A stretch of DNA of 64,000 bases from a virus, in IMG/VR virus record IMGVR_UViG_3300025133_000066, positions 14,291 to 78,290 of that record, one strand, 5' to 3'. Under the pieces are notes generated by a model. That model saw only the letters and a program-made list of their open reading frames with translations, was not told the DNA's origin and did no database searches. Positions 578 to 17,077 of the stretch are shown one piece after another (position 1 is the stretch's first letter; each line of letters starts with the position of its first letter). The translations under genes and the position numbers were made by a program.

Positions 578-586
578 ATAAATAGT
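578..586 (-). promoter_or_regulatory. Putative late promoter motif ACTATTTAT
   Basis: Intergenic, 30 nt upstream of ATG 547; the motif recurs before structural genes. Confidence 0.6.
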
Positions 587-1053: not shown

Positions 1054-1062
1054 ATAATTAGT
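1054..1062 (-). promoter_or_regulatory. Putative late promoter motif ACTAATTAT
   Basis: Intergenic, 21 nt upstream of ATG 1032. Confidence 0.55.
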
Positions 1063-1082: not shown

Positions 1083-1304
1083 TTATTTTATTTTATTTTC
1101 CTCAGCAAGTTTTTTAAGAACTTGCTTTCTTCTTTTCTTTTTTTCCCTTCTTTTCTCAGAAGGCTTTTCATATCGCAAAGTTTCACGATAAGTTTCTAAG
1201 ATTTTTTCTTTTTTGACCTTCTTTATAAATCTTTTTATCATTCTCTGCGGAGTGTCATTCCGGCCTCTGGGCTTGACTGATATATTCACTGGTTTTTTTG
1301 ACAT
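1083..1304 (-). CDS. rpsU: Phage-encoded ribosomal protein bS21 homolog
   Basis: 73-aa very basic protein with the bS21 pattern MIKRFIKKVKK...ILE..RE..RYEKPSEKRR and a GGAG RBS. Confidence 0.85.
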   Translation of the reverse strand: MSKKPVNISVKPRGRNDTPQRMIKRFIKKVKKEKILETYRETLRYEKPSEKRREKKKRRKQVLKKLAEENKIK

Positions 1305-1318: not shown

Positions 1319-1969
1319 TTATCCAACTTTTTTAATTATCGGAATAACAACCTTGTTGTTTCCTTTAAAATAATTACAATTTTTTGGGATTTCTATATCT
1401 ATTATCTTTTCTTTATATAAAATTCTCGGGTTCTCTATAATTAGGTCCTTCCAGCGCGAATGATTGAATTTGCTTTCAGAAGAATTTAAATAACACGATA
1501 AGATCGATTCAGGCTTCATATGCCAATCTAAACAAATATCAATAAACAGATAGAGCCTTTCCTGATCTACTCTGAATTGTAATAAATTTTCTTTTGTAAC
1601 CTCTTCAAATGTTTCGAGAGGATAGTCATCAAAAAATATAAAATCAAACTCTCCCACAGAAGATAAAGCTTTTTGCCAAGTATTATGAATAATGTTAATA
1701 TTCTTATATTTTTCTGACCAGTTTTTGCACCTCTGGATTACTGTAGTGTCACATTCAATTATTGTATGACTTTTGGGATTATAGTGCTGAATTTGTGTTG
1801 CCGAATACCCACACCCAAATCCGATTTCAAGAACATCACCAGTAGGCTTTATTTCATCAATAATCGCCTCCATATAGGGCTTTTCCCATTCCATCATCAC
1901 TTGGTATTTTGAACCTTTAAGTAAAAGCTCTTTTTGATTTTCATCTAAAATAAATTCTTGTTCTAACAT
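1319..1969 (-). CDS. Class I SAM methyltransferase, guanidinoacetate N-methyltransferase/RMT2-like
   Basis: Motifs VMMEWEKPYM, VLEIGFGCG, HTIIEC and FDFIFFDDYP match the GAMT/RMT2 family pattern. Confidence 0.8.
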   Translation of the reverse strand: MLEQEFILDENQKELLLKGSKYQVMMEWEKPYMEAIIDEIKPTGDVLEIGFGCGYSATQIQHYNPKSHTIIECDTTVIQRCKNWSEKYKNINIIHNTWQKALSSVGEFDFIFFDDYPLETFEEVTKENLLQFRVDQERLYLFIDICLDWHMKPESILSCYLNSSESKFNHSRWKDLIIENPRILYKEKIIDIEIPKNCNYFKGNNKVVIPIIKKVG

Positions 1970-1978
1970 TCGCGCCCC

Positions 1979-2491
1979 TTATGTCTTCTTTCTTATAAAG
2001 ATTTTACCACCAAACACCTCATCGCTGGAATTCGTCGGCTGGAAACTTATAATAACATAATTTGATCCGTCTCCGGGAACTACACTAGTAAAAGTATGTA
2101 TTACATTTTGAGCGCCGAAGAAAAGCTGAAGATCCGTCACGGCCGTGCTATCAAGTGCGGAACTAAAAGCCCTGAGGCTATAAAGAGGGGTTACGGTCCC
2201 ACGGATGATGAAGGCGTATGCCTCATAGGCTCTGGGAATAATCTTCATAGCATACGAAGCACCAGCGGAAGTGCCAGCAGGAATTCGGATAGCACCCGCG
2301 CCGACTGTAGCTGTATATTGACCTTCGATAGCTGTTGATTGAGGGCGACTAGTTGATGCATACTCGCGAACATTAAAATCAGTCCCCAATAACGGGATAT
2401 ACTCACTATTTCCCAAGTAACCAGCAGACCAGCCATCATCGACTGTGATGGGATCAGAAATATAATTTGGGCTTGGTCTAAATCTTGACAT
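1979..2491 (-). CDS. Hypothetical beta-rich protein, paralog A of a tandem triplet
   Basis: 170 aa; shares MSRFR, GYLGN.EYIP, FNVREY, AMKIIP, GDG and GGKIFIRK with the next two ORFs. Confidence 0.75.
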   Translation of the reverse strand: MSRFRPSPNYISDPITVDDGWSAGYLGNSEYIPLLGTDFNVREYASTSRPQSTAIEGQYTATVGAGAIRIPAGTSAGASYAMKIIPRAYEAYAFIIRGTVTPLYSLRAFSSALDSTAVTDLQLFFGAQNVIHTFTSVVPGDGSNYVIISFQPTNSSDEVFGGKIFIRKKT

Positions 2492-2504: not shown

Positions 2505-3011
2505 TCATGTTTTCTTTCTTATAAAAATTTTACCACCATACACCTCAGACTTGATATTTGCTGGCTCGAAATATATAGCAACATAATTGGAACCATCTCC
2601 GGGAACTACACTAGTAAAAGTATGTGTTGTATTTTGCGCGCCGGGGGCAGCTTGAAGATTCGTCACGGTGTTGCTATCGAGTGTAGAACTAAAAGCTCTG
2701 ACATTGTAAGTAGGAAATATAGTACCATGCACAATAAAAGCAAAGGCTTCGTAAGCCTTAGGAATAATCTTCATAGCATATGAGGGCCCCATGGCGGCGC
2801 CAGCAGGAATTCGGATAGCACCTCCTGTCCCATTTGTATATTGACCTTCGATAGCTGTTGATTGAGGGCGACCAGTTGTTGCATACTCGCGAACATTAAA
2901 ATCAGAACCAAACACTGGAATATATTCATCATTTCCCAAGTAGCCGGCAGACCAAGAGCCATCGACCGTGAGGCCACCAAAAATCTTATTATTAGCTCTG
3001 AATCTTGACAT
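2505..3011 (-). CDS. Hypothetical beta-rich protein, paralog B
   Basis: 168 aa; long identical DNA tracts shared with paralog A; GGGGGA RBS. Confidence 0.75.
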   Translation of the reverse strand: MSRFRANNKIFGGLTVDGSWSAGYLGNDEYIPVFGSDFNVREYATTGRPQSTAIEGQYTNGTGGAIRIPAGAAMGPSYAMKIIPKAYEAFAFIVHGTIFPTYNVRAFSSTLDSNTVTNLQAAPGAQNTTHTFTSVVPGDGSNYVAIYFEPANIKSEVYGGKIFIRKKT

Positions 3012-3075: not shown

Positions 3076-3579
3076 TCAAGGTATTTTTCTTATGAAAATT
3101 TTACCACCAAACATCTCATCGGTGGCGTTTACCGGATCGAATTCTATAATAACATAAGTTTGTCCGTCTCCGGAGCCAGCAGTAGTAAAAGTGTGTATTA
3201 TATTTTGATTACCCGAAGCAACAGACGGATTGGCACCGGTAGTGAGGCGCGATCCATATGCCGCAACATCAAAAAGAGGAGCAATTTGCCCGTGAATAAT
3301 GAAAGCGAATGCTTCATATCCAGGGGGAATGATTTTCATAGCAAATGATCCACCATCAGTGCACGGAAGAACAACAGAGCCCCCCGGTGGGGTCGTTGTA
3401 GTCTGTAAGCCTTCTATAACATTATTCTGTGTAGTAGTAGTGCGACTATACTCCCGCACATTAAAATCTGTTGGGAGCAATGGAATATATTCGTCATTCC
3501 CCAAGTAACCATCATTCCACTCACCATTAACTGTGATACCACCATAAATATAATTTGGGCTTGGTCTAAATCTGGACAC
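3076..3579 (-). CDS. Hypothetical beta-rich protein, paralog C
   Basis: 167 aa, GTG start, GGAGG RBS, upstream ACTATTTAT motif. Confidence 0.75.
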   Translation of the reverse strand: MSRFRPSPNYIYGGITVNGEWNDGYLGNDEYIPLLPTDFNVREYSRTTTTQNNVIEGLQTTTTPPGGSVVLPCTDGGSFAMKIIPPGYEAFAFIIHGQIAPLFDVAAYGSRLTTGANPSVASGNQNIIHTFTTAGSGDGQTYVIIEFDPVNATDEMFGGKIFIRKIP

Positions 3580-3593: not shown

Positions 3594-3602
3594 ATAAATA
3601 GT
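3594..3602 (-). promoter_or_regulatory. Putative late promoter motif ACTATTTAT
   Basis: Intergenic, 14 nt upstream of GTG 3579. Confidence 0.6.
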
Positions 3603-3614: not shown

Positions 3615-4037
3615 CTAAATCATGTTTTTCCAGTTCTTTCCGCCACCAATTGCCATGATTCCACTTATATCGACACCCGGATCGTTTGCTGCATAAGTTG
3701 CTAAAGGGCCCTGGGCCGGAGATCCGCCAGGAGACCCCCCTTTGTGGAGGGGTTCAACATCTTCAAAAATTCCTTTAAATCCGCTGCCGAGGGATTCTTC
3801 AAGCTTTCTCTTTTTTTCCGTCATTGCAGCATGTGCTTCTTCTTGGAGTTCCACACGCTGTCTTGAGAAGTCGTGTTCTGGCTCTGATGCCTTGGATTCA
3901 ACGATTGTTTGCTGAGAGCCAATACCCAGTGCGACTTCTTTAATTAAATTTGACAAAATACCCTCTTCAAAGATTACTTCCTTGATGCATTCTTTGATAA
4001 GAGGTTTTAATATTTTCTTAAATTCATTCTTTTTCAT
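3615..4037 (-). CDS. Hypothetical head-region protein with N-terminal LIKE helix
   Basis: Start moved to ATG 4037 (ATGA overlap with the upstream stop); begins MKKNEFKKILKPLIKECIKEVIFEE. Confidence 0.7.
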   Translation of the reverse strand: MKKNEFKKILKPLIKECIKEVIFEEGILSNLIKEVALGIGSQQTIVESKASEPEHDFSRQRVELQEEAHAAMTEKKRKLEESLGSGFKGIFEDVEPLHKGGSPGGSPAQGPLATYAANDPGVDISGIMAIGGGKNWKNMI

Positions 4038-4396: not shown

Positions 4397-5008
4397 TTAA
4401 TTTCCCAGTATATTGTTTAAAGCTCTATTAATTCTATCTGCTTTTGTAAAAATATTTGGCTCTTTATATTGCTTGCCTTCCTGCAAATTCATGAAGGCGT
4501 TTGGTGTACTTGGCTCCGAAACAAAATCAAAACAAATAAGTTGAAAATCATCCTCGACCATTGTTCCTTGAGTGCTTTCACGAACAGAACCAAGGCCTCG
4601 TGACGAAATACCAAGTTGGACTCCCGATTCAACGAGGGATCTTAGGATTCCGCCGGCTGGGGTGTTAAGAACCTTAACGGTTCCCATAACTTTTGGGCCG
4701 TCTGCCCAAATATTGGTAACCATGTGGCTAGCATTTCTTAAATTAATGACAGAATCATCTGGATGATCAAGTTCGCCAAGGGCTCGCTTTTCTTTGACAA
4801 GCTTTTGGTATGTCTTAACCTCCCTCATAAGGGTCTTTTGAGGATAAACCCTCCCATTGCCATTCTGGACATCGCAGTGCTGCATAAGGCCAGTTAAATA
4901 CATGGCATTGTTTTCTCTTATATCTCTCTTCTCGGCCTCTGTCAGCAGATCTTGACAAACGCCCCCCTCACAAAGAGCATAATATTCTCTCAATAAAACT
5001 TTACTCAT
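4397..5008 (-). CDS. Prohead core protein protease (T4 gp21-like)
   Basis: Motifs NGRVYP, GELDHP, GISSRGLGS and DFVSEPS. Confidence 0.93.
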   Translation of the reverse strand: MSKVLLREYYALCEGGVCQDLLTEAEKRDIRENNAMYLTGLMQHCDVQNGNGRVYPQKTLMREVKTYQKLVKEKRALGELDHPDDSVINLRNASHMVTNIWADGPKVMGTVKVLNTPAGGILRSLVESGVQLGISSRGLGSVRESTQGTMVEDDFQLICFDFVSEPSTPNAFMNLQEGKQYKEPNIFTKADRINRALNNILGN

Positions 5009-5376: not shown

Positions 5377-5763
5377 TTACCGCAGAGCTTCTAAAAACTG
5401 CTCTTCGCCGTATTTGGTGAGAAATGCTTTTATGGCTTTTAAATAGTCTTCGATCGTGTAATCTCCACTGACCATCAAGTCGGACTCAAGATCGTCATAT
5501 CCCGGAGCCTCACCATCTGCGGGCATGTCCTTAAGCCAATGATCTTCATCTTCTTCTTCAATCGCGGCCTCCAACTTGTCGAACAATTGTTGTTTTAAAT
5601 TAAATAATTTACTAGAATCAGCAGTAGATCTAGTATCCTGTGGTTCTGAGCCTCTTCCGATGCCCATCTCCCGGTTCATTCCGCCCATCATTTTAGTTTC
5701 TGACAGGACGTTTCTAACCTCTTCTTTAATAATCTTTCTCAATTGTTTTGATGTAAGTTTCAT
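5377..5763 (-). CDS. Hypothetical protein carrying the MKLTxxQLRKIIKEE tag
   Basis: Starts MKLTSKQLRKIIKEEVRNVLSE, followed by an acidic cargo region. Confidence 0.7.
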   Translation of the reverse strand: MKLTSKQLRKIIKEEVRNVLSETKMMGGMNREMGIGRGSEPQDTRSTADSSKLFNLKQQLFDKLEAAIEEEDEDHWLKDMPADGEAPGYDDLESDLMVSGDYTIEDYLKAIKAFLTKYGEEQFLEALR

Positions 5764-6308
5764 TTTTCTTTTCCTTCAAGCATGTAGCTCATCCAATATG
5801 GCTGATAAGTATATCCGGGCTTGATTGAACCCTTTTCAGAGGCTTGCGGCACTTCACCAAGTTCTGTAGAGTCTTGATCTGTCGGATGTGTATAATAATT
5901 GTCAAGCATTTGTTCATAATCATCGATGTAATCATAATATGGTTTTTCTTCTTTTAAGAACTTATAAATACCATAAATTGTATAATCTACTGGATTTATT
6001 TCTTTATTTTTAGAAGTCGGAATTAAACCCTCCAATGATCCATAAACGCTGCCTCCTCTGATTGACTCATATTCGACAACACCATTTCGTTTTAAAAATT
6101 CAAATAGTCTATTTTGAGCCTCGTAAACGGTTTCAGAATAATCATTCTTGGCAAAAGTTACAACCTTGCTCTTAGTCGGCATAATTACGATATCCATCTC
6201 TTCGTGATCAAAGATCATAATATTTCCATCAAGAGATTTTCTAGCTTTTAATTCTAAAGTAATTTTCTCTTGGCGCGCTGCTTTTCCAATCTGGATTGTA
6301 ATTGCCAT
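5760..6308 (-). CDS. Hypothetical head-module protein
   Basis: 182-aa ORF translationally coupled to both neighbours. Confidence 0.7.
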   Translation of the reverse strand: MAITIQIGKAARQEKITLELKARKSLDGNIMIFDHEEMDIVIMPTKSKVVTFAKNDYSETVYEAQNRLFEFLKRNGVVEYESIRGGSVYGSLEGLIPTSKNKEINPVDYTIYGIYKFLKEEKPYYDYIDDYEQMLDNYYTHPTDQDSTELGEVPQASEKGSIKPGYTYQPYWMSYMLEGKEK

Positions 6309-7127
6309 TTAAGCCAGTTCCTTAACGAGACCTTGAATTTTTAAAATATCATGAACAAATTTATTATCCAAGACTCTCTTTGATGTCGTTTCCAAAATTT
6401 TAATAACTTTTTTTGTCTTTTCCACCATATCTTGATCATTTTTGATTTCTTTCAAATTAAGAGAATTTTTGACGATATTTGTAAGTCTGGGGATTTCCTC
6501 ATTCAAAAACATCTTCAATTCGATACCGTGATCAGCAAAGGAACCGATATATTTACTCAATAATTCTTTTTGTTCTTTTATTAGCTTATTAGAATACTTC
6601 TCATTAAACTTTTGAACAAATGTTTTATAAGTTAGGTTGTCAATTGGTTTTAAAAATTCTTTTTCGCGCTCTTCTTCGGTAATCATAATGTTGATCATAT
6701 GATTTTCCAACAATACTCTTTGTTTTGTTTTTACTTTTGGATTAAAAATTTGAAAAACTGTTGCCAAATCTCTATAATTTGGAATAAAATTGGAAAATGC
6801 CTCTGGAGATATAAATTTATTTATTTTGTCGATTATCGCCGTCTGTTCTTTGAAAAGCTCTCGATGATTGATAGTCTTTTTCTGCATTCTTGATTCGAAA
6901 ATTAATCTTTCCGCTGTATGTCTCTCGACGTTTTTGGTGTCCAGAATTGATTTATAAATATCCATATCCTTAGCCAAAACAGTATTTCCCCTAAAGTGTT
7001 CCTTAATGAGCTTCATAATAATTTTTTTCTTATTATCATTTTTTTCCATAATGGTTTTGGCCAGTTCCCTGATTAGCACCTCGAAAATAAAAGCGCTATT
7101 GCGCTTCTTATTGTGTTTCATTTTCAT
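6309..7127 (-). CDS. Hypothetical helical protein directly downstream of portal
   Basis: 272-aa ORF overlapping the portal stop; basic N-terminus KHNKKRN. Confidence 0.7.
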   Translation of the reverse strand: MKMKHNKKRNSAFIFEVLIRELAKTIMEKNDNKKKIIMKLIKEHFRGNTVLAKDMDIYKSILDTKNVERHTAERLIFESRMQKKTINHRELFKEQTAIIDKINKFISPEAFSNFIPNYRDLATVFQIFNPKVKTKQRVLLENHMINIMITEEEREKEFLKPIDNLTYKTFVQKFNEKYSNKLIKEQKELLSKYIGSFADHGIELKMFLNEEIPRLTNIVKNSLNLKEIKNDQDMVEKTKKVIKILETTSKRVLDNKFVHDILKIQGLVKELA

Positions 7128-9090
7128 CTATTTGAATCTCCAAGTTTTCTAATTCTGCGACTAAATCTTTAACTCTTGAGCTTGCTTCAAACAAAAGAGC
7201 TTCTTCTTTATTATAATTAGGTTGTTTAGTTTCGTAAATACCCCGAGAAAGACCCATTAAATTTTCCATTCCCGGTACTATCTCTTTTGACTTTGGGAAT
7301 GCTATGGCTGTATAGTTTTGTTCTCTCCCATTTCGGCCGTCGTGTCCCCTTAATTCTTTGGGAACATATCTCTTTCCTTTGGCCTTTTTTCCTAAAGAAT
7401 TTTTAGTATATCGGCGGTTTCTATCGTCACGATCATCATTTCGCTTCGCTGGGGCTGCCAAAAGGGGGCCTCCCCCCTCTTCACCGCCAAGGTCTTCACC
7501 GCCGCCGAGATCGCCAAGATCCCCGCCGCCAAGATCCCCAAGGTCTTCACCGCCGCCAAGATCCCCAAGATCACCGCCGCCAAGATCCCCAAGATCACCG
7601 CCGCCGAGATCCCCAATCCCTCCAGCAGCGGCTTCGCCGGCAGATTCTGCTGCGGCATTAAGTTCTGCTTCATATTTTCTATCGTGGAACATTTCTCTTT
7701 GGTTTCTAACAAACTCCTCTTCGGAAAGACTAAAAATGTTTTGAGCAATCCAACGACGGCTAAAAAAGTTTTCGGTGGCGCCGCTGGCAATATCAAATTT
7801 TGATTTCCAGTGCTCCAATTCTTGAAGTTCGGCAATTTTGGATGGATTATTTAACTTTAATCGGAAACTTACTAAATCATCGCCTCTAAATCCCAAAGTA
7901 TATAAATGAACGATTCCAATCTTTTCCAACTCGGCAATAACAGAGCGCTGTAGTCTTTGGATGGTTCTTGCGAAGCGAACATCTTTTTGTGCAAGTGTTG
8001 TCCTATCCTCCACACTTTCTGTATCACTTGACAAATATGCGGACGGTATCTTTATCGCAGAGAACATTTTGTCTCGAAGATATTTCACATCATCAATATC
8101 ACCAGTAAATTGACCGCCAGGAAGTGACTCAATTTTAGATGATTCTCCTCCTCTAATTGGAACAAAATAGTCTTCTTCAACCGAAAGAGGGTTATATCTC
8201 AAATCGACTCTTCCCGTATTCGCATCAACAACCTGATTTCGTTTCATAGATGTAATTGTCTTTTGAATGAAGGTTTCTACATCTTGCGGGGCAATATTTC
8301 CGACATCGATATAAAAAACTCTTCGTTCTGCTGAACGGACAATCCGATAAGCCATCATTGCATCTTCCATAAGAACCAACTGACGCCAAATACGTCGAGC
8401 AGATTCCATCACGGAGGTACCATATGGGGAATATTTGTCATTTCCAAGTATTCGGAAATGAGCAATTTGCCAATTTTCAAAAGTCATACCAGCAGAGTTC
8501 CACTGGTATTGGACGTAGTTTGGATTAGTAGGATCTTCGCCTTCCATCCTTTCAATCTCTTTCAGTGGGATTGGGATGACAGATTTTACACCGATACGGT
8601 CATCAATATCCATATAAAGAATAAAATCTCCGAATTTGCACATTGAGCGACACCATCCAAACAAATTATGATTAATATTTAAAACATTTTCATAAAGAGA
8701 GCGAAGAACCGCTTTGATTTCTTCGTTTGGGCACTCAATATCCATCATAGGAGAAAGAGCAGAGTGTGTTGTCATTTCATCAGCATAAATATCCATTGCG
8801 GAGGCCAATTCTGGCATATATTCCATTTGTTCATAATCAATATATCTCTCGGCTCTATTTTGTTGAGCCATGATCTTCGAATGCATGACATCAAAGGGGC
8901 TATATTCTGATTTTTTAAATTGTTGACCACTTGCTGATCTGAAATCTGTTGAATATTTGTCAAGCGCCGTTCTTCGAATCTTTCGATTCATCTGGGTACG
9001 CCAGTTTACGATTGGACCCGAAAATAATCTCGTTAATCTCCTAAAAAGTTCTGATTGTGAGTTATTGGGGTTTTTCTTTTGGTCGGCCAT
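7108..9090 (-). CDS. Portal vertex protein (T4 gp20-like) with long C-terminal extension
   Basis: Motifs LMEDAMMAYRIVRSAERRVFYIDVGN, EEDYFVP.RG, LPGG, DVKY and DVRFARTIQRLQ. Confidence 0.95.
   Translation of the reverse strand: MADQKKNPNNSQSELFRRLTRLFSGPIVNWRTQMNRKIRRTALDKYSTDFRSASGQQFKKSEYSPFDVMHSKIMAQQNRAERYIDYEQMEYMPELASAMDIYADEMTTHSALSPMMDIECPNEEIKAVLRSLYENVLNINHNLFGWCRSMCKFGDFILYMDIDDRIGVKSVIPIPLKEIERMEGEDPTNPNYVQYQWNSAGMTFENWQIAHFRILGNDKYSPYGTSVMESARRIWRQLVLMEDAMMAYRIVRSAERRVFYIDVGNIAPQDVETFIQKTITSMKRNQVVDANTGRVDLRYNPLSVEEDYFVPIRGGESSKIESLPGGQFTGDIDDVKYLRDKMFSAIKIPSAYLSSDTESVEDRTTLAQKDVRFARTIQRLQRSVIAELEKIGIVHLYTLGFRGDDLVSFRLKLNNPSKIAELQELEHWKSKFDIASGATENFFSRRWIAQNIFSLSEEEFVRNQREMFHDRKYEAELNAAAESAGEAAAGGIGDLGGGDLGDLGGGDLGDLGGGEDLGDLGGGDLGDLGGGEDLGGEEGGGPLLAAPAKRNDDRDDRNRRYTKNSLGKKAKGKRYVPKELRGHDGRNGREQNYTAIAFPKSKEIVPGMENLMGLSRGIYETKQPNYNKEEALLFEASSRVKDLVAELENLEIQIDENETQ
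7481..7620 (-). repeat. GC-rich tandem repeat encoding (GDLGGG[E]DL)n in the portal tail
   Basis: Repeated units such as ccgccgccaagatccccaagatca on the plus strand. Confidence 0.9.
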
Positions 9091-9093
9091 TCT

Positions 9094-10683
9094 TTATCCT
9101 TTTATTAACCAAGAATATTGTTCATAATCTTCTTTTGCTTTAAACATCTTCTCATCTAATGCTTCTTTTCTATTATATCCCTGCATTCCTGGGATTGTTG
9201 TATTAATTTTTGTATTAACTCTAATCATGGAATCCAAACACGCCTTTTTATATTCTAATTCTCTCTTATTAACACTCAATGCTGTATCCCTCACCCAACA
9301 ACCAATTGCTAATGCCATAATAAGGTCATCATTATATCCCCTCATCGCCTGAGGTTTGCCATTGTGCCAAATAAAAGTTCGCAATTCGTTAGAAAAGCGA
9401 ACCGAATATACTTTAATTAGTTTGTTTCTAATGAATTCTTCTAATTTTGCAACGATAAGAGGTCGGGTTTTTAAAGATGTTGTAAATCCTGGGACAGCAG
9501 AGTTGTTCGTTGCTCCCTGGTGGCTATCTACATATTCATGGGTACCCTTTATCGAATAATATAAATTCGGATATTGCAACTCAATTAATTTTTCCAAAAC
9601 GGAAATGCCAATGCCAACATTTTCAACAACCAACAAACAATTACCATATTCTTTGCCAGCCTGCATTAAAATGCTGGAATACATATCTAAACTGGGTTTT
9701 CCTTGATACTCTGCTATAACTTCCATTGTATCTAATTTGATGATGTGAAAAACAGAATAATCTGCCCCATCTCCTCTTGCGACATCGGCAACAAGGAGGT
9801 AAGTGCATTCGGGATTATATTCTTCCCAAATCCACATATTTCTGTCAAAACTTGTTCTGTATTTAGGATCTTTAACGTTCGTTTCTACCCACGCGATATC
9901 ATCCGGATGAATAATTGTCTCGCCCGATGTATTGAAGTTACATTCAAGCTCCTGAGCGATCTCTCGTCTGGACATATTTCTTGTTTCTTTCTCAAACCAT
10001 TCCTGATCTCGGTCAGGGTGAACGTCCCAATTCAGCACAACGGGGTGAAAGTCGTTTGACCCCTCCGCTGCCTCGCTATATGTCTTGTGAAACCAGTTTC
10101 CAACACCATTTGGAGTAGAAAGAGCGATCACTCGACCACCAGTTGAAATTGTAGGATACAGGCCGGCCCAAAGCTCGCTTAGGTTTTCAACGTGTGCGGC
10201 CTCATCAATCACCAAAAGAGAAAGTGCTTCGGAACGACCAGCATCGCCGGAAGTTGAGGCTGCTTGAATTTGTGAACCGTTGGAAAGCTCGAAAGATGCC
10301 CTATTATCAATTGATATATTGGCGATAAGAAGAAAGTCTGGGACATTTTTCATAATTGCCTTAACTTTTTTGACAAGATTGGCCGCTGTTTTGAATTTTG
10401 TGGCCATAACAAGAATGTTCTTGTCTCTATGAAACAGCATCATCCAAACAATATAGCCAGCAGCAATAGTTGAGATGCCCAACTGGCGTGCTTTGAGGAT
10501 TACATTAAAGCGGTAATCATTAAAATCTGTTAAAAGGTCAGCCTGATAGTCATAAGTCTTAAATGGAATAAGACCTTTGATCGGGTGTGAGATTCTTGCG
10601 TAATTATTTACGAAGTAGATCGGATCTTTTCCACACTTTAGTATTTCAGCTACTATTTCCTTTTTGGAGAGTGTGTATGACAT
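9094..10683 (-). CDS. Terminase large subunit (T4 gp17-like)
   Basis: Walker A KARQLGIST, Walker B LLVIDEAA, STPNG, and nuclease motifs ADVARG.G.DYS and DDLIMA. Confidence 0.95.
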   Translation of the reverse strand: MSYTLSKKEIVAEILKCGKDPIYFVNNYARISHPIKGLIPFKTYDYQADLLTDFNDYRFNVILKARQLGISTIAAGYIVWMMLFHRDKNILVMATKFKTAANLVKKVKAIMKNVPDFLLIANISIDNRASFELSNGSQIQAASTSGDAGRSEALSLLVIDEAAHVENLSELWAGLYPTISTGGRVIALSTPNGVGNWFHKTYSEAAEGSNDFHPVVLNWDVHPDRDQEWFEKETRNMSRREIAQELECNFNTSGETIIHPDDIAWVETNVKDPKYRTSFDRNMWIWEEYNPECTYLLVADVARGDGADYSVFHIIKLDTMEVIAEYQGKPSLDMYSSILMQAGKEYGNCLLVVENVGIGISVLEKLIELQYPNLYYSIKGTHEYVDSHQGATNNSAVPGFTTSLKTRPLIVAKLEEFIRNKLIKVYSVRFSNELRTFIWHNGKPQAMRGYNDDLIMALAIGCWVRDTALSVNKRELEYKKACLDSMIRVNTKINTTIPGMQGYNRKEALDEKMFKAKEDYEQYSWLIKG

Positions 10684-10686
10684 TGT

Positions 10687-11202
10687 TTATTCTTTGGCGA
10701 ATCCGCCTTCTTTTAAGAATTTGTGGTAATTGACAGCCATCGTGTCGGTCACTGCCTCACCAAGGGTGGTAACCTGCTTCATTCCGCCAATCTTGTACAT
10801 CTTGTGTGCTGTCACAAATGTTCTCACTCTTGATGTATTCTGGACAAGGCACTTTGCTTCGCCTTGTGGAGTGATTGAGAGTGATTTTCCAGTGATAGCC
10901 TTATATTCCTTCTTCAAAAAGTCTGCGATCTGTTGAATTTTGCGTTCGCATTCTTCCTCAAAGCCAACTGCATAAACAGAAGACAGGGCAACATTTGATT
11001 CATAGTTAATTTGGAGCATGTCTCCGACAATTTTCACGCCGAAACCATCAGAAACCCGACTATCAATGATTGGGCAGCCCTCTTCCCGATTTAGACCAAT
11101 CTTTTTGACATCTCCGGTTACGAAGCGCTCGTCGTGGGATCCATCGTAGGCATTTGCTGCTGCCTGATTAATCCCTGTAATAATTTCTAATGTTGTAGCC
11201 AT
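10687..11202 (-). CDS. Hypothetical protein
   Basis: 171-aa ORF; its C-terminal NYHKFLKE resembles the ENWxxF tag. Confidence 0.7.
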   Translation of the reverse strand: MATTLEIITGINQAAANAYDGSHDERFVTGDVKKIGLNREEGCPIIDSRVSDGFGVKIVGDMLQINYESNVALSSVYAVGFEEECERKIQQIADFLKKEYKAITGKSLSITPQGEAKCLVQNTSRVRTFVTAHKMYKIGGMKQVTTLGEAVTDTMAVNYHKFLKEGGFAKE

Positions 11203-11889
11203 TTATTTAATTCCTTTTTCTTTTTTATAAGAATTGTACTGAGCCAGGTGGGCGCCGGTAAGGCCCGGGTCCTCCGGGTTTACATATTTGTTTTTGATCA
11301 TATCCTCGATATCACTCCTTTCGGAGCCGGGAGGCCTTAGGAGAATGTTCCTGATGTATTCTTCCACACTCTGACTGAACCACGCAACTTCATCTTCTTC
11401 GCGGTAGATCTGATTCAGGACTGGCAACGTTTTTGCCAGCCATGGCTCTTCTGTATATTGAGCGTCTCCTGCAAAAATCGCACGAAGGTGATTTACCATT
11501 TGTTTGGCCAATTCTTCCCCGTGGGACTCCAGATATTTCTGGACACTACCCTTGCTGTCTTCCTCTTGCACATGTACAAAAGCGTGCTCCAACTCGGAAT
11601 TGGGATCAAAAAGAGCCGGGAGTTCATCGATGATCTGGTCTTGGAAGTGTTTTTTGTCGTCGGCGAGCTTTGTGGCCACTTCGGCGTCAGCGTCGGCCTT
11701 CAATGTGCTAGCCGCAGACAAATAATCTCCCCACCCTTCTTTCATCAAATTATTAATTTCTTCTTTAACGATATTAGCTAATTGTGATTTTGTAAGCTTA
11801 ATTTTACCACGAAGGTGAGGGCGCCGAACGGAGACATTTTTGATTTCTTCCTTGATGAGTTTTCTCAACTGTGATTTCGTAAGTTTCAT
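11203..11889 (-). CDS. Hypothetical protein with two copies of the KLTKSQL..I.KEE tag
   Basis: MKLTKSQLRKLIKEEIKNV...IKLTKSQLANIVKEEINNLMKEGW, followed by a GC-richer acidic cargo. Confidence 0.75.
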   Translation of the reverse strand: MKLTKSQLRKLIKEEIKNVSVRRPHLRGKIKLTKSQLANIVKEEINNLMKEGWGDYLSAASTLKADADAEVATKLADDKKHFQDQIIDELPALFDPNSELEHAFVHVQEEDSKGSVQKYLESHGEELAKQMVNHLRAIFAGDAQYTEEPWLAKTLPVLNQIYREEDEVAWFSQSVEEYIRNILLRPPGSERSDIEDMIKNKYVNPEDPGLTGAHLAQYNSYKKEKGIK

Positions 11890-11903
11890 AATTTTTTTCC
11901 TTT

Positions 11904-12173
11904 TTATAGACTCTGAGTTAGGGCCTCTAGGACCTCTTCTTTTGTCATTCCAGATTGCAGTGCCAGAGCACCGATGGCAAGAAGAGCATCTCTAGCACTA
12001 GTCTTTGATGTCCCGAGATCTGGAAGCTCTCCAGATTCACCACCCAATTCAGCAGCCTTTCCCCAATATTTTTCTCCTTCCGTATCTCCGAAAGCGTCAG
12101 AGGGCGCGCCTTCGATAACCTTTCCAATCTCTTCTTTGATAATTTTTCTCAATTGAAATTTTGTAAGTTTCAT
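11904..12173 (-). CDS. Hypothetical protein carrying the MKLTxxQLRKIIKEE tag
   Basis: Start moved to ATG 12173 (AAGGA RBS); begins MKLTKFQLRKIIKEEIGKVIEG. Confidence 0.7.
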   Translation of the reverse strand: MKLTKFQLRKIIKEEIGKVIEGAPSDAFGDTEGEKYWGKAAELGGESGELPDLGTSKTSARDALLAIGALALQSGMTKEEVLEALTQSL

Positions 12174-12177
12174 TATT

Positions 12178-12558
12178 TTATTCCTTTTCGGGGCGCCATC
12201 CAGACTTCCACCTTTCCTCGCGACCTTCGACCCACTGAATGTAGCACTTAAAACAACAATCAAATTTTGTCATATAAACATCATCACGCGAATCAAAAGA
12301 ATAAGAACGACATGTTTGACAAATCCTATTATTGTCTTTATTAATTAGTTTTTTAGATATTAAAACTCCATCAACTTCTACTTTTTCATTATTTTCTCGA
12401 TGTTTTATTTCTTTTTTGTGTAATTCGCGGATTTGCTGCTGATAATCTTTTTCTTTTTCATCATCCCAGTCGGCTTTTGGGTGCTGTATTGCTTCTTTCC
12501 CATATTTCTTAGAAATAGCATTTTCATATTTGGCAACTTCATTTAAGTCTTTTTTCAT
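12178..12558 (-). CDS. Hypothetical protein with C-terminal Cys cluster (putative Zn finger)
   Basis: CQTC...CCFKC motif. Confidence 0.65.
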   Translation of the reverse strand: MKKDLNEVAKYENAISKKYGKEAIQHPKADWDDEKEKDYQQQIRELHKKEIKHRENNEKVEVDGVLISKKLINKDNNRICQTCRSYSFDSRDDVYMTKFDCCFKCYIQWVEGREERWKSGWRPEKE

Positions 12559-12986
12559 TTATTCACCGCATATGTTATTCCAATAGTTGCCCCGACACCA
12601 ATTGCAAAGCCTCCGATAACACCCCAAATAAGGGCGTTCTTTCCAGGCTTCTTTCGGATGATCTTGTTTAATTGCTCGATTTCTGTGTTTTTTAAAACTA
12701 ATGTTGAATTGAATCTTTCTCTTTCTGTGTCAATTGTAATATTTAGTTGATCAATTTTAAGTTGGCATTGTGCTTTTTGCTTTTGCAGTTCGAATCCGAG
12801 TTTTAAATCATATTCTTCTTTTAGAAACTTGTGATTTGCCAATAATCTGGCTGTTGCCTCGGGATCAAATAATGTTCCAGTAAAGGGTGCTGCCTTTCCT
12901 TCTTGAATAAAGGTAAATTTGCCATCGGCAGCTTGTGCTGAATTTAAAAAACCAAAAAGAAACAATAATGTGATTTTACTCCACAT
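12555..12986 (-). CDS. Secreted/membrane coiled-coil protein, possible spanin-like component
   Basis: Start at ATG 12986; signal peptide ending AQA-A, a coiled coil and a C-terminal Gly-rich TM helix; overlaps the end of the upstream gene. Confidence 0.5.
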   Translation of the reverse strand: MWSKITLLFLFGFLNSAQAADGKFTFIQEGKAAPFTGTLFDPEATARLLANHKFLKEEYDLKLGFELQKQKAQCQLKIDQLNITIDTERERFNSTLVLKNTEIEQLNKIIRKKPGKNALIWGVIGGFAIGVGATIGITYAVNK

Positions 12987-13377
12987 ATTCAAATCCAAAA
13001 GCCTCCTCAATTTCTCTGGCCAACTCCTCTGGCTGCTCGTCGAAATCTCTGATGAACTTTTTTATGTCTTTTTCTTTATTTTTGCTTAAATCGGCTACCG
13101 ACTCATTATATTTTTCTGTCAGATTTATCAGATCACGCTCAAATTTGGCTATAGCCTCTTCTCGGGCGGCCAACTCTTTTTGGTGGAGAGCTTCCAATGT
13201 TGCAATCTGCTCTTCATAGCTTGTACTCATTACATCCATCGACTTTTTGAGTGATGAATAATCATTTTTTGTTATAAAAAAGAGGATAATCATAATAACC
13301 AAGCCGACACCTTGCCAGTTTTTAATTAAGAACATGCCGACCGACTTAAATAAATCTCCAATGTTGATATTAATCAA
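12976..13377 (-). CDS. Membrane-anchored coiled-coil protein, i-spanin-like
   Basis: N-terminal TM segment (GVGLVIMIILFFI) followed by a long coiled coil. Confidence 0.5.
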   Translation of the reverse strand: MININIGDLFKSVGMFLIKNWQGVGLVIMIILFFITKNDYSSLKKSMDVMSTSYEEQIATLEALHQKELAAREEAIAKFERDLINLTEKYNESVADLSKNKEKDIKKFIRDFDEQPEELAREIEEAFGFEYVE

Positions 13378-13381
13378 TTTT

Positions 13382-13684
13382 TTATTTTATCCTTGGGTGC
13401 CATTGACGAAATATATTTTCTACTTCGTCTTCTGTAGCAGAAGGGGAAGCCCAATCAAAATTAATATCTTGAAGGTGTGTCAAAAATATATTTTTGGTGG
13501 CTATATGACCAACACTATCAGATAGTGGATTTTCACGAGAGAGTTCTATAGCTCTTTTCATAATTCCATCAACCTTGAATTTGTGTTCAAGACTGTCTCT
13601 TTCCTCTTCCTTTTCTTGATCGCTGATCATTTCATTAAGCCCCTCTTTGATGAGCCTTCTTAACTGGGATTCTGTTAACTTCAC
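13382..13684 (-). CDS. Hypothetical protein carrying the MKLTxxQLRxxIKE tag
   Basis: GTG start, MKLTESQLRRLIKEGLNEM; GGGAG RBS. Confidence 0.7.
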   Translation of the reverse strand: MKLTESQLRRLIKEGLNEMISDQEKEEERDSLEHKFKVDGIMKRAIELSRENPLSDSVGHIATKNIFLTHLQDINFDWASPSATEDEVENIFRQWHPRIK

Positions 13685-13908: not shown

Positions 13909-13917
13909 ATAATTAGT
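13909..13917 (-). promoter_or_regulatory. Putative late promoter motif ACTAATTAT
   Basis: Intergenic, 20 nt upstream of ATG 13888. Confidence 0.6.
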
Positions 13918-13918: not shown

Positions 13919-16900
13919 TCACTGTTCAATAAAGGCATAACCATTTTTCTTGTCAATTACAATTTGCATATCAACACAATCTTTAAGACTGTCCAGATGG
14001 GAGATAAGAAGGACTGTTTTGAAATAAGATCTAATCAAATCCAGGATATCAACAAATCCTTGCATATTTTCTTCATCTAGGGCAGTTCCTGGCTCATCAA
14101 GGATGAAGAAATCCGACTTTGGAAGAGAAGAAACACTCAACAGAGCCAAGCGAATTGCCATGGCGGCAATTGTTTTCTCGGCTCCAGACCCCATTTCTAG
14201 CGGACGAGGTTCGTGGCGTGGATGTTTGATGAAAATATCAAGTCTTTTACCGTCATCCTCGAAGAAAACCTCAAAATCAACGATATTTGCCAGGATTTTG
14301 GCAACCTCATCATTGATTACGGGTAATTTGCGCTTAATAACATCATAGGCTATCCCATTTGGGTGCATGCAGCGCAGGTAAAGATCATAAGAAGAGAATT
14401 CTTCCTGTAAATCAAGGTATTCGTTTCTCTGAGTTATCAGATTATTAACTTTTTGTTCTAAAGATCCGACAGACTTATATATATCCAGAATAGATGATGT
14501 ACACTTTTCATGATTGCTTTGAAAATTTTGTGATTTGATTTTTAAGCCTCTTAACTTTTGTGACAAATTCCCCAGATTTTCAATAATTTCCTTATTTAGT
14601 TCATATTCTGAGACCTTTTCTTCTGATATTTCTATTTCAGACATCAAGTTTTTAATGATACTAACATTTTTCTCTATTTTAAGGTCATAATTTGTTATTT
14701 TATTGGACAGTGCATTCTTTTTATTAACAATTTCATTGTATTTTCCTATATGATCTTCAACTTCATCGGGGTTAATCTCCTCAATATCGTCGTTCAGGTC
14801 ATCAATTTGCCCCGAGAGGTTCTCGGCCTCTTTTTCGTTGAGCGGAATGGTTGCTTTAGAAACATATGCATCCTTAATAAATTTACATTTGGGATGTGCG
14901 GTACCACAGGGAATTCCCTGAAGCAACTGAAGCTTGTTTTTATTTCTTTTAAGCTCTTCCTCTTCTACACTCAATGAATTTTCTAAGATTACTAGTTGAT
15001 TTAATAATTCATGAACCCTTTCCTGTTTCTCAAAGAGGGCTTTCTTATCAAATTCTCCCAAAAAAAGAAGAATCTTTCGATATTTCTCCTTATCTGCATC
15101 TCTTTCTATATAAAACTCACTATTTTGGTCTGAAACGGAGATTAATTGGTTCTTTTTGTCATTTAATTCTTGTTGAACTTTCATAACATCTATAATTTCG
15201 GCAGGAATTGACTTTATCTTTTCATTTATTTCTCCTATTTCTTTATTACATTGAGAAATGTTGAATTTGATAGTCTCGCAGTGGTGTTTTTTCCTTTCAA
15301 GATCGTTGTTGGCATTCTCAAGCTCTTCTTGTGCAAATAAAATATCGTTATTAAAGTCTCTTCCCTCTGATTTTTTTAGAGCGCCCCTAGTATCGGATGC
15401 ATCTTCTTTGGCTAATCGAAATTTATGTTCAAAAAATTCCAAATCAAGAAACTTGGCAAGAATCTCCTTTCTCTTTGTTGAACCTTCTTTAATAAAGGTA
15501 AGAGAATCGAGTTGAGAGGCCATTGATGAATAAAGAAAGTCCTCCAATGTTCCAAAAACCTTTCTAATGTTCTTGTCAGTTTGATTTCTCGTCAAACCAT
15601 TGAGGCTCTCCATATCTCCAAGTGCAGGATCATAAACTGTGAATTCTACATTTGTTTTTGCTTCCTGAGTTACAGATCCTTTTAATTTTCTAGTATATTT
15701 TTCTGAATTTCTCTCAATATAATAATCCTTATCTCCGATAGAGATCTTAACTTTACCGGATCCGACTTTTTTATTTTGATTTATAATATTTAGGTTTTTT
15801 CTGTCGTTTTTTGATGTTGAATTGAACACTGTATACAAGATTGAATCAATAATACTCGACTTTCCAGAAAAGTTCTTTCCGAAAATGCCGACGATACCCT
15901 CTAGGCTATCAAAATTAATGCTATTCCCCTCTGCATAATTAAATAAATTGCTCCATTCAATAGATCGAAGCCTCCAATTGATGTTTCGAGAGACCTCTTC
16001 GTTCTCCTCGGCAATCTTATTGTATTTTAAATTTAAATTAATGACCCTTTGCATCAATTCATCGTCAACCTCAAAATCTTTCAAGTATTCTTTAATGAGT
16101 TCCTCTTGAATTTGAATATTTCTAAGGTCTTCAGTCTCTAAACCATCTGTAATATTCTGGATATCTCCTTTTTCTCCGGTTGCTCGGTTCAAAAAGGTAA
16201 TGCTCTCTGGTTTAAACCTTCGTTTTGCCACCTCTGTTGCCTTCCTCATTACATCGAGGGGTAAATTGTTGTTTGAGACCAATCGAAGTCTAGCAGATTG
16301 CGGAATATTTTTGGCTGCACTTCTCGGCATCTTACCTTTTGGTGTCAATTCGATGGTCATGAAGGGTCTTGGGTTCTTAATATTAAAATGTTGGCAAGTA
16401 AAGTCTTCCTTACTTTGAATATCCCATAGTAAAAATCCCTTGTCGTTTGTTTCGCCGTGATTTTGTTGGATTGTGGATCCAGGATAGCGAATTTTACCTT
16501 CGGCATCAAGTCTTTGGTCAGTTTTGTGAATATCTCCCAATAAGCCGTAATCATGTCCTTCAAAAATCTCAATAGGGTGCTCTCCATGAGTCATAACCCA
16601 GCCTGTATCAGTGACAACACCGGAAACGGATCCGTGATAAAGAGCAATATTAATTTTGCTCGGATCCGAAGGTTTAACCCACCCCTCCTCATCAAAAACA
16701 GACAAAATATTTAGTGTTACATTCGCCGATAGAGGTGTTTCGCCCGATTTCTTAAGCAAATATAGGTTTGGGTGAGCTAAGGCCTCCACGATAGGTGTGA
16801 GGGCATCCTGACGGCTACTATTGCGCAGATTTCCGTCGTGATTTCCCAGAATGACGTAAGTTGGTGCGATATGAGCGAGATTACTCAAAAAATCAGAGCA

Positions 16901-17077
16901 CATTTCGACAAATTCTGGACTAATTTGTGTTTTTGTGTGAGCAATATCACCACAATGAACGATATAATCTGGCTTTTCCCTTCTTAAAATATCATATAGC
17001 TCGTTGAAAATAATTCTGTATTCATAATGATACTTTAAATTCTTAATATGTGTGTCTGCAATGTGGGCAATTCTCAA
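13919..17077 (-). CDS. Fused Mre11/SbcD nuclease and Rad50/SbcC ATPase (gp47-gp46 fusion)
   Basis: Metallophosphoesterase motifs ADTH, GDIAH, GNHD and LGDIH; Walker A GKNFSGKSS; coiled coil; signature GSGAE; Walker B FILDE; ISH loop. Confidence 0.92.
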   Translation of the reverse strand: MRIAHIADTHIKNLKYHYEYRIIFNELYDILRREKPDYIVHCGDIAHTKTQISPEFVEMCSDFLSNLAHIAPTYVILGNHDGNLRNSSRQDALTPIVEALAHPNLYLLKKSGETPLSANVTLNILSVFDEEGWVKPSDPSKINIALYHGSVSGVVTDTGWVMTHGEHPIEIFEGHDYGLLGDIHKTDQRLDAEGKIRYPGSTIQQNHGETNDKGFLLWDIQSKEDFTCQHFNIKNPRPFMTIELTPKGKMPRSAAKNIPQSARLRLVSNNNLPLDVMRKATEVAKRRFKPESITFLNRATGEKGDIQNITDGLETEDLRNIQIQEELIKEYLKDFEVDDELMQRVINLNLKYNKIAEENEEVSRNINWRLRSIEWSNLFNYAEGNSINFDSLEGIVGIFGKNFSGKSSIIDSILYTVFNSTSKNDRKNLNIINQNKKVGSGKVKISIGDKDYYIERNSEKYTRKLKGSVTQEAKTNVEFTVYDPALGDMESLNGLTRNQTDKNIRKVFGTLEDFLYSSMASQLDSLTFIKEGSTKRKEILAKFLDLEFFEHKFRLAKEDASDTRGALKKSEGRDFNNDILFAQEELENANNDLERKKHHCETIKFNISQCNKEIGEINEKIKSIPAEIIDVMKVQQELNDKKNQLISVSDQNSEFYIERDADKEKYRKILLFLGEFDKKALFEKQERVHELLNQLVILENSLSVEEEELKRNKNKLQLLQGIPCGTAHPKCKFIKDAYVSKATIPLNEKEAENLSGQIDDLNDDIEEINPDEVEDHIGKYNEIVNKKNALSNKITNYDLKIEKNVSIIKNLMSEIEISEEKVSEYELNKEIIENLGNLSQKLRGLKIKSQNFQSNHEKCTSSILDIYKSVGSLEQKVNNLITQRNEYLDLQEEFSSYDLYLRCMHPNGIAYDVIKRKLPVINDEVAKILANIVDFEVFFEDDGKRLDIFIKHPRHEPRPLEMGSGAEKTIAAMAIRLALLSVSSLPKSDFFILDEPGTALDEENMQGFVDILDLIRSYFKTVLLISHLDSLKDCVDMQIVIDKKNGYAFIEQ

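Follow-up and report, generated by a model that had tools for sequence, protein, structure and literature searches.

Tagged genes of the window and their neighbours

The stretch of DNA analysed here (the window, 64,000 nucleotides covering positions 14,291 to 78,290 of IMG/VR record IMGVR_UViG_3300025133_000066) encodes four genes carrying five copies of one peptide, the tag, whose consensus is MK[LI]TxxQL[RK]xIIKEE followed by a hydrophobic-x-Glu site. All features given coordinates in this section lie on the minus strand. The first tagged gene (5377..5763, 128 aa) combines tag residues 1-22 (5698..5763, ending L-S-E) with a variable linker and an acidic helical body. Its insertion site lies in the portal-to-protease block, where the flanking 182-aa and 95-aa genes are conserved. 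The second gene (11203..11889, 228 aa) has two tags, copy 1 at 11824..11889 and copy 2 at 11737..11799, the latter without a Met and ending in M-K-E before a Gly. In the third (11904..12173, 89 aa), which starts at the ATG at 12173 and not at an upstream TTG, the tag (12108..12173) ends V-I-E, then G, and precedes a Gly-rich acidic body. The fourth (13382..13684, 100 aa) begins with a GTG 3 nt past the stop of the preceding gene, and its tag (13619..13684) is a variant with G15 and L-N-E as its second site.

A preliminary description of this DNA had reported these four genes, their five tag copies and the second sites LSE, MKE, VIE and LNE. We recovered all of them at these coordinates and on this strand, and the tag profile matched the five copies with E-values of 3.5e-18 to 4.8e-7. 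A pattern scan of the entire 78,290-bp contig returned exactly these five tag sites and no further ones. The same description had seen a looser version of the tag at 3615..4037; with the tag HMM this gene reaches only -0.6 bits, and we exclude it from the tag system. A Gp23 capsid protein and a terminase, also picked up as “tagged” by a loose regular expression, were false positives to which the HMM gives no score. Searches of Pfam and PHROGs returned no match on the four tagged proteins.

The tagged genes share the window with genes of T4-like head assembly. The gene at 4397..5008, previously described as a gp21-type protease, does encode a prohead protease of the T4 gp21 family (Peptidase_S77, PF03420; E 7.7e-31, 107.6 bits against a cut-off of 27). 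At the edge of the window, 2..547 is the 3' part of a gene for a very acidic 332-aa protein with no Pfam or PHROG match. This gene immediately precedes that of the major capsid protein, where T4 encodes its gp22 scaffold.

In this phage’s group, tagged genes and structural genes have a promoter-like motif in common, ACTAWTTA. The coding strand has 11 copies of the longer form ACTAWTTAT, against 2.2±1.4 in shuffled sequences, and the other strand has none; these copies precede sheath, baseplate wedge, connector-like and scaffold-position genes by 16-50 nt. One copy, ACTAATTAT (13909..13917), lies 29 nt upstream of a 66-aa gene and heads a tightly packed string in which that gene is followed by three tagged genes, the terminase and the portal. 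Overall, the motif precedes 26 of 416 tagged genes (2.5 expected); in the closest complete relative, the two tagged genes outside the head region both have it. The T4 late promoter TATAAATA was not enriched (8 found, 7.6 expected), and sigma-70-like promoters and intrinsic terminators were at background level. Head genes of the 280-kb relatives are often preceded by a related heptamer, ATAYTTA; before the tagged genes of these relatives its count (4, against 1.8±1.3) was not significant.

Conservation and Glu sites of the tag

The portable core of the tag consists of residues 1-15, M-K-[IL]-T-K-x-Q-L-[RK]-x-I-I-K-E-E, with a weaker extension to about residue 22. Conservation peaks over residues 1-15, a block that closes on I-x-E, and information content is at background by residue 23, where Gly and Pro together rise from 0-1% to 18%; as the strict tag set was picked with an HMM spanning residues 1-24, the conservation of the core is partly circular. 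Within the family of 5377..5763, conservation is highest in the tag through L-S-E-T; an indel-rich linker comes next. The tag had been described as a basic amphipathic helix. Residues 1-13 are indeed basic (+3 to +5) and the tag is predicted to be helical, but the hydrophobic moment of the tag is not above that of shuffled sequences. A PDB profile search with the tag gave an unrelated protein as its best match (E 0.058), and an ESM Atlas look-up returned viral hypothetical clusters only, below 0.9.

Selection could act mainly on the nucleic acid, with the 45-66 nt leader serving as a translation-initiation or mRNA element, or as a recombination handle, and the peptide arising as a by-product. 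The leaders at 5763, 11889 and 12173 are alike as DNA, each with an AAGGA ribosome-binding site 8-10 nt upstream. Moreover, cassettes are replaced at a fixed genomic junction (see below), and tags are somewhat closer within a genome than between genomes (identity of 0.557 versus 0.510). However, third codon positions in the DNA alignment of the tag copies differ synonymously while the residues are kept, which points to selection on the peptide and not on the DNA, with no conserved DNA cassette. Copy 2 of 11203..11889, an internal copy with neither start codon nor ribosome-binding site, is nevertheless conserved as protein in eight homologs, in which the 12-residue linker between the two copies is hypervariable. 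The tag also persists across lineages whose portals are merely 35-60% identical. We regard selection on the leader as nucleic acid as very improbable.

Glu residues in the tag are position-specific. Among the tag cluster representatives, 96% have I12-x-E14 and 78% have a further [LIVMF]-x-E between residues 17 and 28, compared with 12-24% in later sequence windows. This second site peaks at E22 and is followed by small or polar residues. At the level of sequence motif, the end of the tag matches that of prohead proteases (L/I-x-E in T4), and the capsid propeptide of this lineage retains L-[RK]-E, then A, S or V, where T4 gp23 is cut. According to extracts of the source, gp21 of T4 cleaves after L/I-x-E, and the capsid targeting sequence (CTS) of this phage has 10 residues, the last three being I-A-E (PMC9026906). 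The Glu periodicity could instead be a property of the helix itself and not mark a cleavage site.

Distribution of the tag and diversity of the bodies behind it

A tag peptide of 15-22 residues fronts thousands of otherwise unrelated small proteins in this uncultured marine T4-like phage and its relatives. The phage itself is present in at least 23 metagenome runs. Searching a library of 1.84 billion representative proteins with the tag profile (E<=0.001) yielded 10,982 matching protein clusters (50% identity). We found relatives by a DNA-pattern scan of IMG/VR and then ran family searches on the matching records. The tag profile had been predicted to uncover, in relatives, numerous orphan ORFs that combine the tag with non-homologous bodies, and it did so, with 518 ORFs falling into 332 body clusters. 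Complete relatives have up to 35 tagged genes per genome, frequently in tandem arrays, and multi-unit tag chains as well as tandem and internal tag copies exist. The impression that all tagged genes sit among head genes held for the window, where three are found immediately upstream of the terminase and the fourth between portal and protease, but not for complete relatives, whose tagged genes are mostly in arrays at least 100 kb from the protease gene. In relatives of about 280-293 kb, most of them occur in dense arrays of small orphan genes distant from head genes.

Tagged genes behave as accessory cassettes. Of 54 relatives, only 6 have a tagged gene in the conserved portal-to-protease block; in five of these six it occupies the same junction as in the window, with five different bodies in all. 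No carrier was found among cultured phages: of 50,697 phage records, isolated or deposited, LR756508.1 alone matched the tagged proteins or the tag by itself in tblastn. In this 484-kb phage, no fewer than nine small genes bearing divergent tags flank the protease gene.

The tag is found on viral or mis-binned viral contigs only and is restricted to phages of the S77/Gp23 type. The “cellular” matches were confined to six MAG contigs with conflicting taxonomy; S77 adjoins Gp23 in the two MAGs that were tested. Among 24 long tag-bearing viral contigs, 20 encode the S77 protease, as do all five of those at least 90% complete. This co-occurrence may be a clade-restricted trait alone, since, to our knowledge, S77 is present in all T4-like phages. 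The tag might also be a leader for a modifying enzyme, following a RiPP-like logic, and a methyltransferase gene does lie in the head module (1319..1969). Yet this gene matches rRNA adenine dimethylases and adjoins bS21, no recurrent enzyme gene was found by the tagged genes or arrays in the window and six array loci, and the S77 protease is the only enzyme found to co-occur consistently. A modification leader is, in our judgement, highly unlikely.

The bodies in the window were first described as unrelated and acidic; tag-stripped, they indeed have no credible pairwise similarity, and their pI is 4.2-5.1. Across relatives, the 518 tag-stripped bodies formed 332 BLAST clusters, and arrays of 23 tagged genes held 19 body clusters. 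Such a pattern could come from an ordinary fast-evolving paralog family in which the helix is the sole conserved structural element, the bodies have diverged beyond detection and no addressing takes place. Tandem arrays suggest duplication, one single-linkage cluster unites 84 bodies, and a weak C-terminal “[FV]LEAL” is common to the bodies of 5377..5763 and 11904..12173; detectable similarity also fades fast in small helical acidic proteins. Against common descent of the bodies, the tag precedes complete and unrelated Pfam domains, namely AAA_33 (a P-loop kinase, profile positions 1-141 of 143, only 5 residues behind the tag), YkuD (an L,D-transpeptidase, here with no signal peptide) and DUF6321. 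Furthermore, 270 of the 332 clusters are singletons, body lengths run from 45 to several hundred residues, and bodies swap behind one tag at a single genomic junction. We consider simple paralogy improbable.

The bodies have a median pI of 4.8, with 69% below 5.5, whereas mature T4 IPI-III have a pI of 9.0-9.7; the tagged cargo is mostly acidic and does not resemble small basic DNA-associated proteins such as these. AlphaFold2 models of the 228-aa and 128-aa families were of low confidence (pLDDT 47.2 and 47.4); secondary structure alone was used.

A candidate capsid-targeting propeptide

We propose that the tag works as a propeptide directing proteins to the prohead (capsid), analogous to the T4 CTS, and give this sequence-based reading roughly even credence. 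The preliminary description had proposed such an address label; those of its predictions that lent themselves to computation were all borne out, and we judge its interpretation to be supported in part. From it we infer docking, cleavage, presence in the virion, injection and any cargo function. The basic tag helix would dock a protein on the acidic scaffold core during prohead assembly, the proposed partner being the product of the 332-aa acidic gene (3' part at 2..547). The gp21-type S77 protease (4397..5008) would then cut after I12-x-E14 and/or the second [LIVMF]-x-E near residue 22. Cleavage would free the body inside the head, and the body may later exit with the DNA.

The closest parallel is in T4, where Mullaney and Black reportedly described a capsid targeting sequence on internal proteins in 1996. 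In extracts of two sources, the CTS is found on IPI, IPII, IPIII (and Alt) and is removed by the prohead protease gp21 (PMC9026906, PMC3012670). Like the CTS, the tag is one short N-terminal peptide on otherwise unrelated proteins of the same phage, starting with M-K and ending with the hydrophobic-x-Glu of the gp21 motif. The phage also resembles T4 in its gp21-family protease, gp20-type portal and gp23-type capsid, and its tagged cargo genes, like ipI, ipII and ipIII, are accessory, variable and partly scattered beyond the head module. Unlike the 10-residue CTS, however, the tag has 15-22 residues, is strongly basic, offers two candidate cut sites and bears no sequence similarity to MKTYQEFIAE. 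In T4 three or four proteins are tagged, in contrast to the up to 35 genes per genome and more than 10,000 families seen here, and the tandem and internal copies and multi-unit chains also set this system apart. The tag profile found nothing at E<=10 in the whole T4 genome, in which the N-termini of ipII and ipIII were read directly. The “LIKEEK” of T4 gp67, considered as a relative of the tag core, scored 2-5 bits with the tag HMM and, given the empty unbiased scan of the T4 genome, is a chance likeness. Among the points against the capsid-targeting reading are the acidic bodies, the distant arrays, the missing homology to the T4 CTS and the low confidence of the fold predictions.

Two other systems offer partial parallels. 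In the giant phages phiKZ, 201phi2-1 and SPN3US, as described in extracts of the sources, a diverged gp21 homolog cleaves many proteins of the head interior at the C-terminal side of Glu, the ejection and inner-body propeptides being cut after S/A-x-E with redundant sites within them (PMC9026906, PMC10052503, PMC5694885). Those propeptides are defined by their cleavage motif, and the extracts mention no common N-terminal tag, whereas here one conserved tag is the defining feature and the protease is a close S77 member, not of the diverged phiKZ type. In phage P1, a signal formed by about 30 N-terminal residues of DarB suffices to bring a heterologous reporter into the capsid; the head packages the Dar anti-restriction proteins, which are delivered to the cell as cargo that counters host defence (PMC9024508). 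P1 differs in its protease and capsid lineage, the DarB signal was reported on one protein, compared with the multi-gene tag described here, and no sequence relation between the two is expected.

Alternatively, the tag could be a docking helix for another common partner (host RNA polymerase, ribosome or protease, or a phage protein) or a self-associating coiled-coil, in which case the arrays would hold cytoplasmic host-takeover or anti-defence genes. The orphan-gene arrays of the 280-293 kb relatives look like typical hyperplastic accessory regions, the bodies are small, acidic and unlike T4 internal proteins, and the hydrophobic positions 3, 8, 11/12, 16 and 19/20 of the tag suit a heptad-like helix. 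Internal tag copies are maintained, which indicates that the N-terminal position is not strictly required. Left unexplained by such a partner, however, are the conservation that ends in I-x-E-E with a second hydrophobic-x-E at the boundary of a Gly/Pro-rich linker, the placement of tagged genes beside the protease gene in two distant lineages, and the structural-gene motif upstream of tagged genes in this phage’s group. We hold docking to another partner to be rather unlikely.

Capsid targeting could extend further. As a tentative possibility, which we would sooner doubt than assume, the tag may be a universal capsid-loading address that serves dozens of genes in each genome and, across an abundant uncultured marine T4-like clade, over 10,000 families of cargo. 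The head would then be a delivery vehicle for fast-diversifying small, mostly acidic effectors and a few enzymes, and the prohead protease would cut multi-tag chains into units. The acidic effectors are possibly DNA mimics or other anti-defence proteins. Capsid loading on such a scale would be undescribed for any phage, and T4, with its few internal proteins, would be a minor case of a far more extensive strategy.

Should the tag prove to be a capsid address, thousands of proteins in abundant uncultured ocean phages would be picked out by a simple sequence criterion as candidates for packaging, and probably for injection, and ORFs of the “viral dark matter” would become a defined functional class. 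If it serves another partner, it would still rank with the largest short protein modules in viral sequence space that lack annotation; neither Pfam nor PHROGs contains it. As to expression of the window, a single metatranscriptome run had reads at 8500-9217, the portal/terminase junction, and 31-mers in the bS21 gene, and nowhere else.

A shared N-terminal peptide on dissimilar proteins

The preliminary description had reported five copies of a shared N-terminal peptide (hereafter, the tag), and we recovered all of them: at the starts of the minus-strand genes 5377..5763 (128 aa), 11203..11889 (228 aa), 11904..12173 (89 aa) and 13382..13684 (100 aa, with a GTG start codon), named here 5763, 11889, 12173 and 13684 by their start positions, and internally at 11799, within 11203..11889. 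Scanning the full contig for the pattern gave no sixth copy, and a looser version proposed at 3615..4037 does not belong to the set, scoring -0.6 bits against the tag HMM. The copies vary at synonymous third positions (AAA/AAG, CTT/TTA, CAA/CAG and ATT/CTC), and therefore the peptide is the conserved entity; selection at the nucleic-acid level is an unlikely source of such a pattern. The remainders of the four proteins (their bodies) had been described as unrelated and acidic. Indeed, once stripped of the tag, they share no credible pairwise similarity and have pI values of 4.2-5.1, and none of the four proteins matched Pfam or PHROGs.

As anticipated, relatives encode many tagged ORFs; we collected 526 in a loose set and 436 in a strict one (>=15 HMM bits). 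The 518 tag-stripped bodies fell into 332 clusters by single-linkage BLAST, 270 of them singletons, and arrays of 23 tagged genes held 19 body clusters; simple paralogy is thus unlikely to account for the shared N-terminus. About 85% of 92 long representatives had no Pfam match. Where cargo domains were recognisable, they were complete and C-terminal to the tag. For example, an AAA_33 kinase domain begins at residue 28, five residues past L-R-E, and DUF6321 lies at the end of one multi-tag protein. A tag that serves as leader for a modifying enzyme is likewise unlikely, given that neither the window nor six array loci show a recurring enzyme gene next to tagged genes. In an IMG/VR locus (L192:6258-7055, minus strand), the tag and a linker of ~45 residues precede a complete YkuD L,D-transpeptidase domain. 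This protein carries no signal peptide, and a periplasm-acting enzyme devoid of an export signal would fit virion-borne delivery.

Using one representative per body cluster, we next delineated the tag. Information content was 2.2-5.1 bits per position across residues 1-15 (position 6 excepted), a strength that is partly circular since the selection HMM covers residues 1-24. The boundary pattern is less affected: residues 16-22 carried 0.4-1.4 bits with a local maximum at E22, and from residue 23 information was at background while Gly plus Pro rose from 0-1% to 18%. Of the representatives, 96% contain I12-x-E14. In 78% there is a second [LIVMF]-x-E whose Glu falls at residues 17-28, compared with 12-24% in downstream windows of the same size; this Glu was E22 in 119/332 and E21 in 57/332, followed mainly by G, A, Q, S, N or D. 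The tag has a basic character, and AlphaFold models of low confidence tentatively predict it to be helical over residues 5-21/27, with coil thereafter. The helix had been called amphipathic, which did not hold, as its amphipathicity is no higher than in shuffles. The 128-aa family, for which 5.8 billion proteins yielded only five relatives, is most conserved over the tag through L-S-E-T, and an indel-rich stretch follows. In the 228-aa family, conservation covers the body and both copies of the tag; the linker between the copies is hypervariable.

Distribution of the tag among phages

We scanned 80 portal-centred loci; of the 53 pattern matches, 41 had a start codon immediately before the Lys, and all 41 lay on the portal strand. 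We then built a 42-column tag profile, A3, from 36 N-termini. It found 631 proteins among 8,000 scored word-sharing candidates from the 5.8-billion-protein collection, and, when HMMER was run exhaustively against 1.84 billion representatives, 10,982 clusters at 50% identity (E<=0.001). The top-scoring matches contained two to four tag copies each; chains of two to four tag-plus-body units within one ORF were seen in database proteins P0001, P0005, P0017, P0019, P0029 and others. Internal copies mostly retain the initial 'MK' and come after what looks like a translated ribosome-binding site, which would be expected of fused tandem genes. Besides gene fusion, nested starts or true polyproteins may explain such chains.

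The number of tag matches varied among complete relatives: 14-35 in genomes of 280-293 kb, 13 in one 190-kb relative, and 3-6 in the closest ones. Most of these genes form dense same-strand tandem arrays, encode 80-250 aa, and start with MKITKRQLRRIIKEE(K)AKLLxE. In two complete relatives (G020 and G006), arrays occupy both contig ends (in G020, 270-284 kb and 0-0.6 kb), and the repeated tag-coding DNA may have been the assembler's break point in a circularly permuted genome.

The tag is specific to viruses: a degenerate DNA pattern of it matched more than 118 IMG/VR stretches, whereas in the genomes of 185,579 species its matches were limited to six MAG contigs, whose taxonomic assignments conflict with one another. 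Two MAG contigs in GTDB, NHDW01000006.1 (306 kb, Methylococcaceae) and PBIO01000025.1 (101 kb, Halobacteriovorax), bear 6-7 tags each; the two MAGs examined each encode one Peptidase_S77 (S77) prohead protease ~6 kb from a Gp23 gene, consistent with mis-binned phage contigs. These two contigs are very likely phage genomes binned in error. We found no tag in cultured phages: Microcystis phage Mel-JY01 had none, a Flavobacterium phage gave weak partial matches only, and the sole tblastn match was to the uncultured 484-kb phage LR756508.1, which has 17 tag matches.

The head module and its upstream motif

The window spans bases 14,291-78,290 of a single viral contig of 78,290 bp, 43% complete by CheckV, with 74 of 75 called genes on the minus strand; complete relatives measure ~190 kb. 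Its head module is T4-like, comprising a gp20-type portal (7108..9090), a terminase (9094..10683), a prohead protease at 4397..5008 whose earlier assignment as gp21-type is borne out by a Peptidase_S77 match, and a Gp23-type capsid protein gene just upstream of the window. The closest cultured relatives of the portal, ~39% identical, belong to Mel-JY01 and the Flavobacterium 'immuto' phages. Related portals are encoded on more than 590 IMG/VR contigs, and no fewer than 23 metagenome runs of marine origin contain the window stretch. The phage is a member of an abundant, uncultured marine myovirus lineage.

T4 TATAAATA was not enriched. The motif ACTAWTTAT, in contrast to 2.2±1.4 occurrences in shuffles, occurred 11 times on the coding strand of the whole contig and never on the opposite strand. 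Copies of ACTAWTTA(T), such as 13909..13917, 578..586, 1054..1062 and 3594..3602 in window coordinates, precede a number of genes at a distance of 16-50 nt, among them the tail sheath, connector-like and scaffold-position genes (the last a 332-aa acidic gene in the place of T4 gp22) and the first of three head-module paralogs; for a baseplate wedge gene the distance is 112 nt. All identifiable targets are virion genes. One copy sits 29 nt upstream of a 66-aa gene at 13888, which heads a string, spaced by gaps of 0-14 nt with no terminator-like sites between genes, that includes tagged genes 13684, 12173 and 11889 and continues into the terminase and portal. Of 416 tagged genes in relatives, 26 have ACTAWTTA ahead of them (2.5±1.7 expected), mainly at 20-50 nt; the two tagged genes that lie outside the head module in the closest complete relative are among these 26. 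The motif is missing from the tag arrays of 280-kb phages, where a related heptamer gave no significant signal. These patterns support probable co-regulation of tagged and structural genes within the ~190-kb group, for which we infer ACTAWTTA(T) to be a candidate late promoter.

The window also holds the following genes, all on the minus strand. Within the head module, a bS21 ribosomal protein gene (1083..1304; PF01165, E 4e-8), whose equivalent slot in Mel-JY01 is occupied by RpsU, directly adjoins a methyltransferase gene (1319..1969) with an rRNA adenine dimethylase match (RrnaAD/KsgA type, PF00398, 27.9 bits, cut-off 24); both products would act at the 30S platform near the 16S rRNA 3' end. 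Next come three tandem paralogs of 167-170 aa (MSRFR...GGKIFIRK; 1979..2491, 2505..3011 and 3076..3579), unmatched in Pfam or PHROGs, with a ACTATTTAT motif 23 nt upstream of the first transcribed. The portal's C-terminal region (~7440..7600) repeats the Gly/Asp-rich GGGDLGDL ~6 times before a basic tail, outside the matches to cultured phages' portals. Finally, a 1052-aa protein (13919..17077) unites an SbcD/Mre11-type phosphoesterase (Metallophos) with an SbcC/Rad50-type ATPase (AAA_23, SMC_N), functions that T4 divides between gp47 and gp46.

Likeness to T4 capsid targeting

The nearest precedent for the tag is the T4 capsid targeting sequence (CTS). According to the T4 record, internal proteins (IPs) II and III begin with MKTYQEFIAE and IPI with MKTFKEF. 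The first 10 residues of IPIII are described as enough to bring foreign proteins into the T4 head, processing is controlled by residues 8 and 10, and the T-even internal proteins form a diverse set with the CTS alone in common (PMC9026906; PMC3012670). P1 DarB carries an analogous 30-residue signal (PMC9024508). The tag resembles the CTS in architecture (M-K..., a hydrophobic pair, x and Glu) and in its genomic logic. However, the two share no sequence similarity; the tag is longer and basic, marks an order of magnitude more genes per genome, and precedes acidic bodies (median pI 4.8), unlike mature T4 IPs (9.0-9.7).

The S77 protease was present in 20 of 24 long tag-bearing records, including 5/5 of those at least 90% complete; the four lacking it are fragments, 20-81% complete. 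The lineage's capsid propeptide is conserved through ...ELL[RK]E, after which a short stretch varies, and its L-x-E|[A/S/V] site coincides with the T4 gp23 cut position (...FLTE|AE). T4-like protease specificity is therefore plausible, and the gp21 rule is given as L/I-x-E (PMC9026906). Between portal and protease lie three conserved genes (~272, 183 and 96 aa). Only 6 of 54 relatives carry a tagged gene in this block, with five different bodies across the six, and in five the insertion falls between the 183-aa and ~96-aa genes, as in the window. Such sporadic occurrence with changing bodies indicates accessory cassettes, unlike T4 gp67 and gp68, which are essential core components.

Weighing these likenesses and differences, we give about even chances to the tag being a T4-CTS-like signal. 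The main rival, a docking helix for another common partner, is possible but rather doubtful. N-terminal capsid targeting is a known class of mechanism; this particular tag sequence appears undescribed, matching no Pfam or PHROG family, nor any report in a literature search with the sequence string.

The distant huge phage LR756508.1, whose portal is 35% identical, has its protease gene bordered directly by at least nine small genes that carry divergent versions of the tag. In this phage, a single 574-aa ORF (156,480..158,204, locus L220) matches S77 in two separate pieces (profile 21-127 and 98-195), which points to a large insertion in the protease, perhaps an intein or an additional domain.
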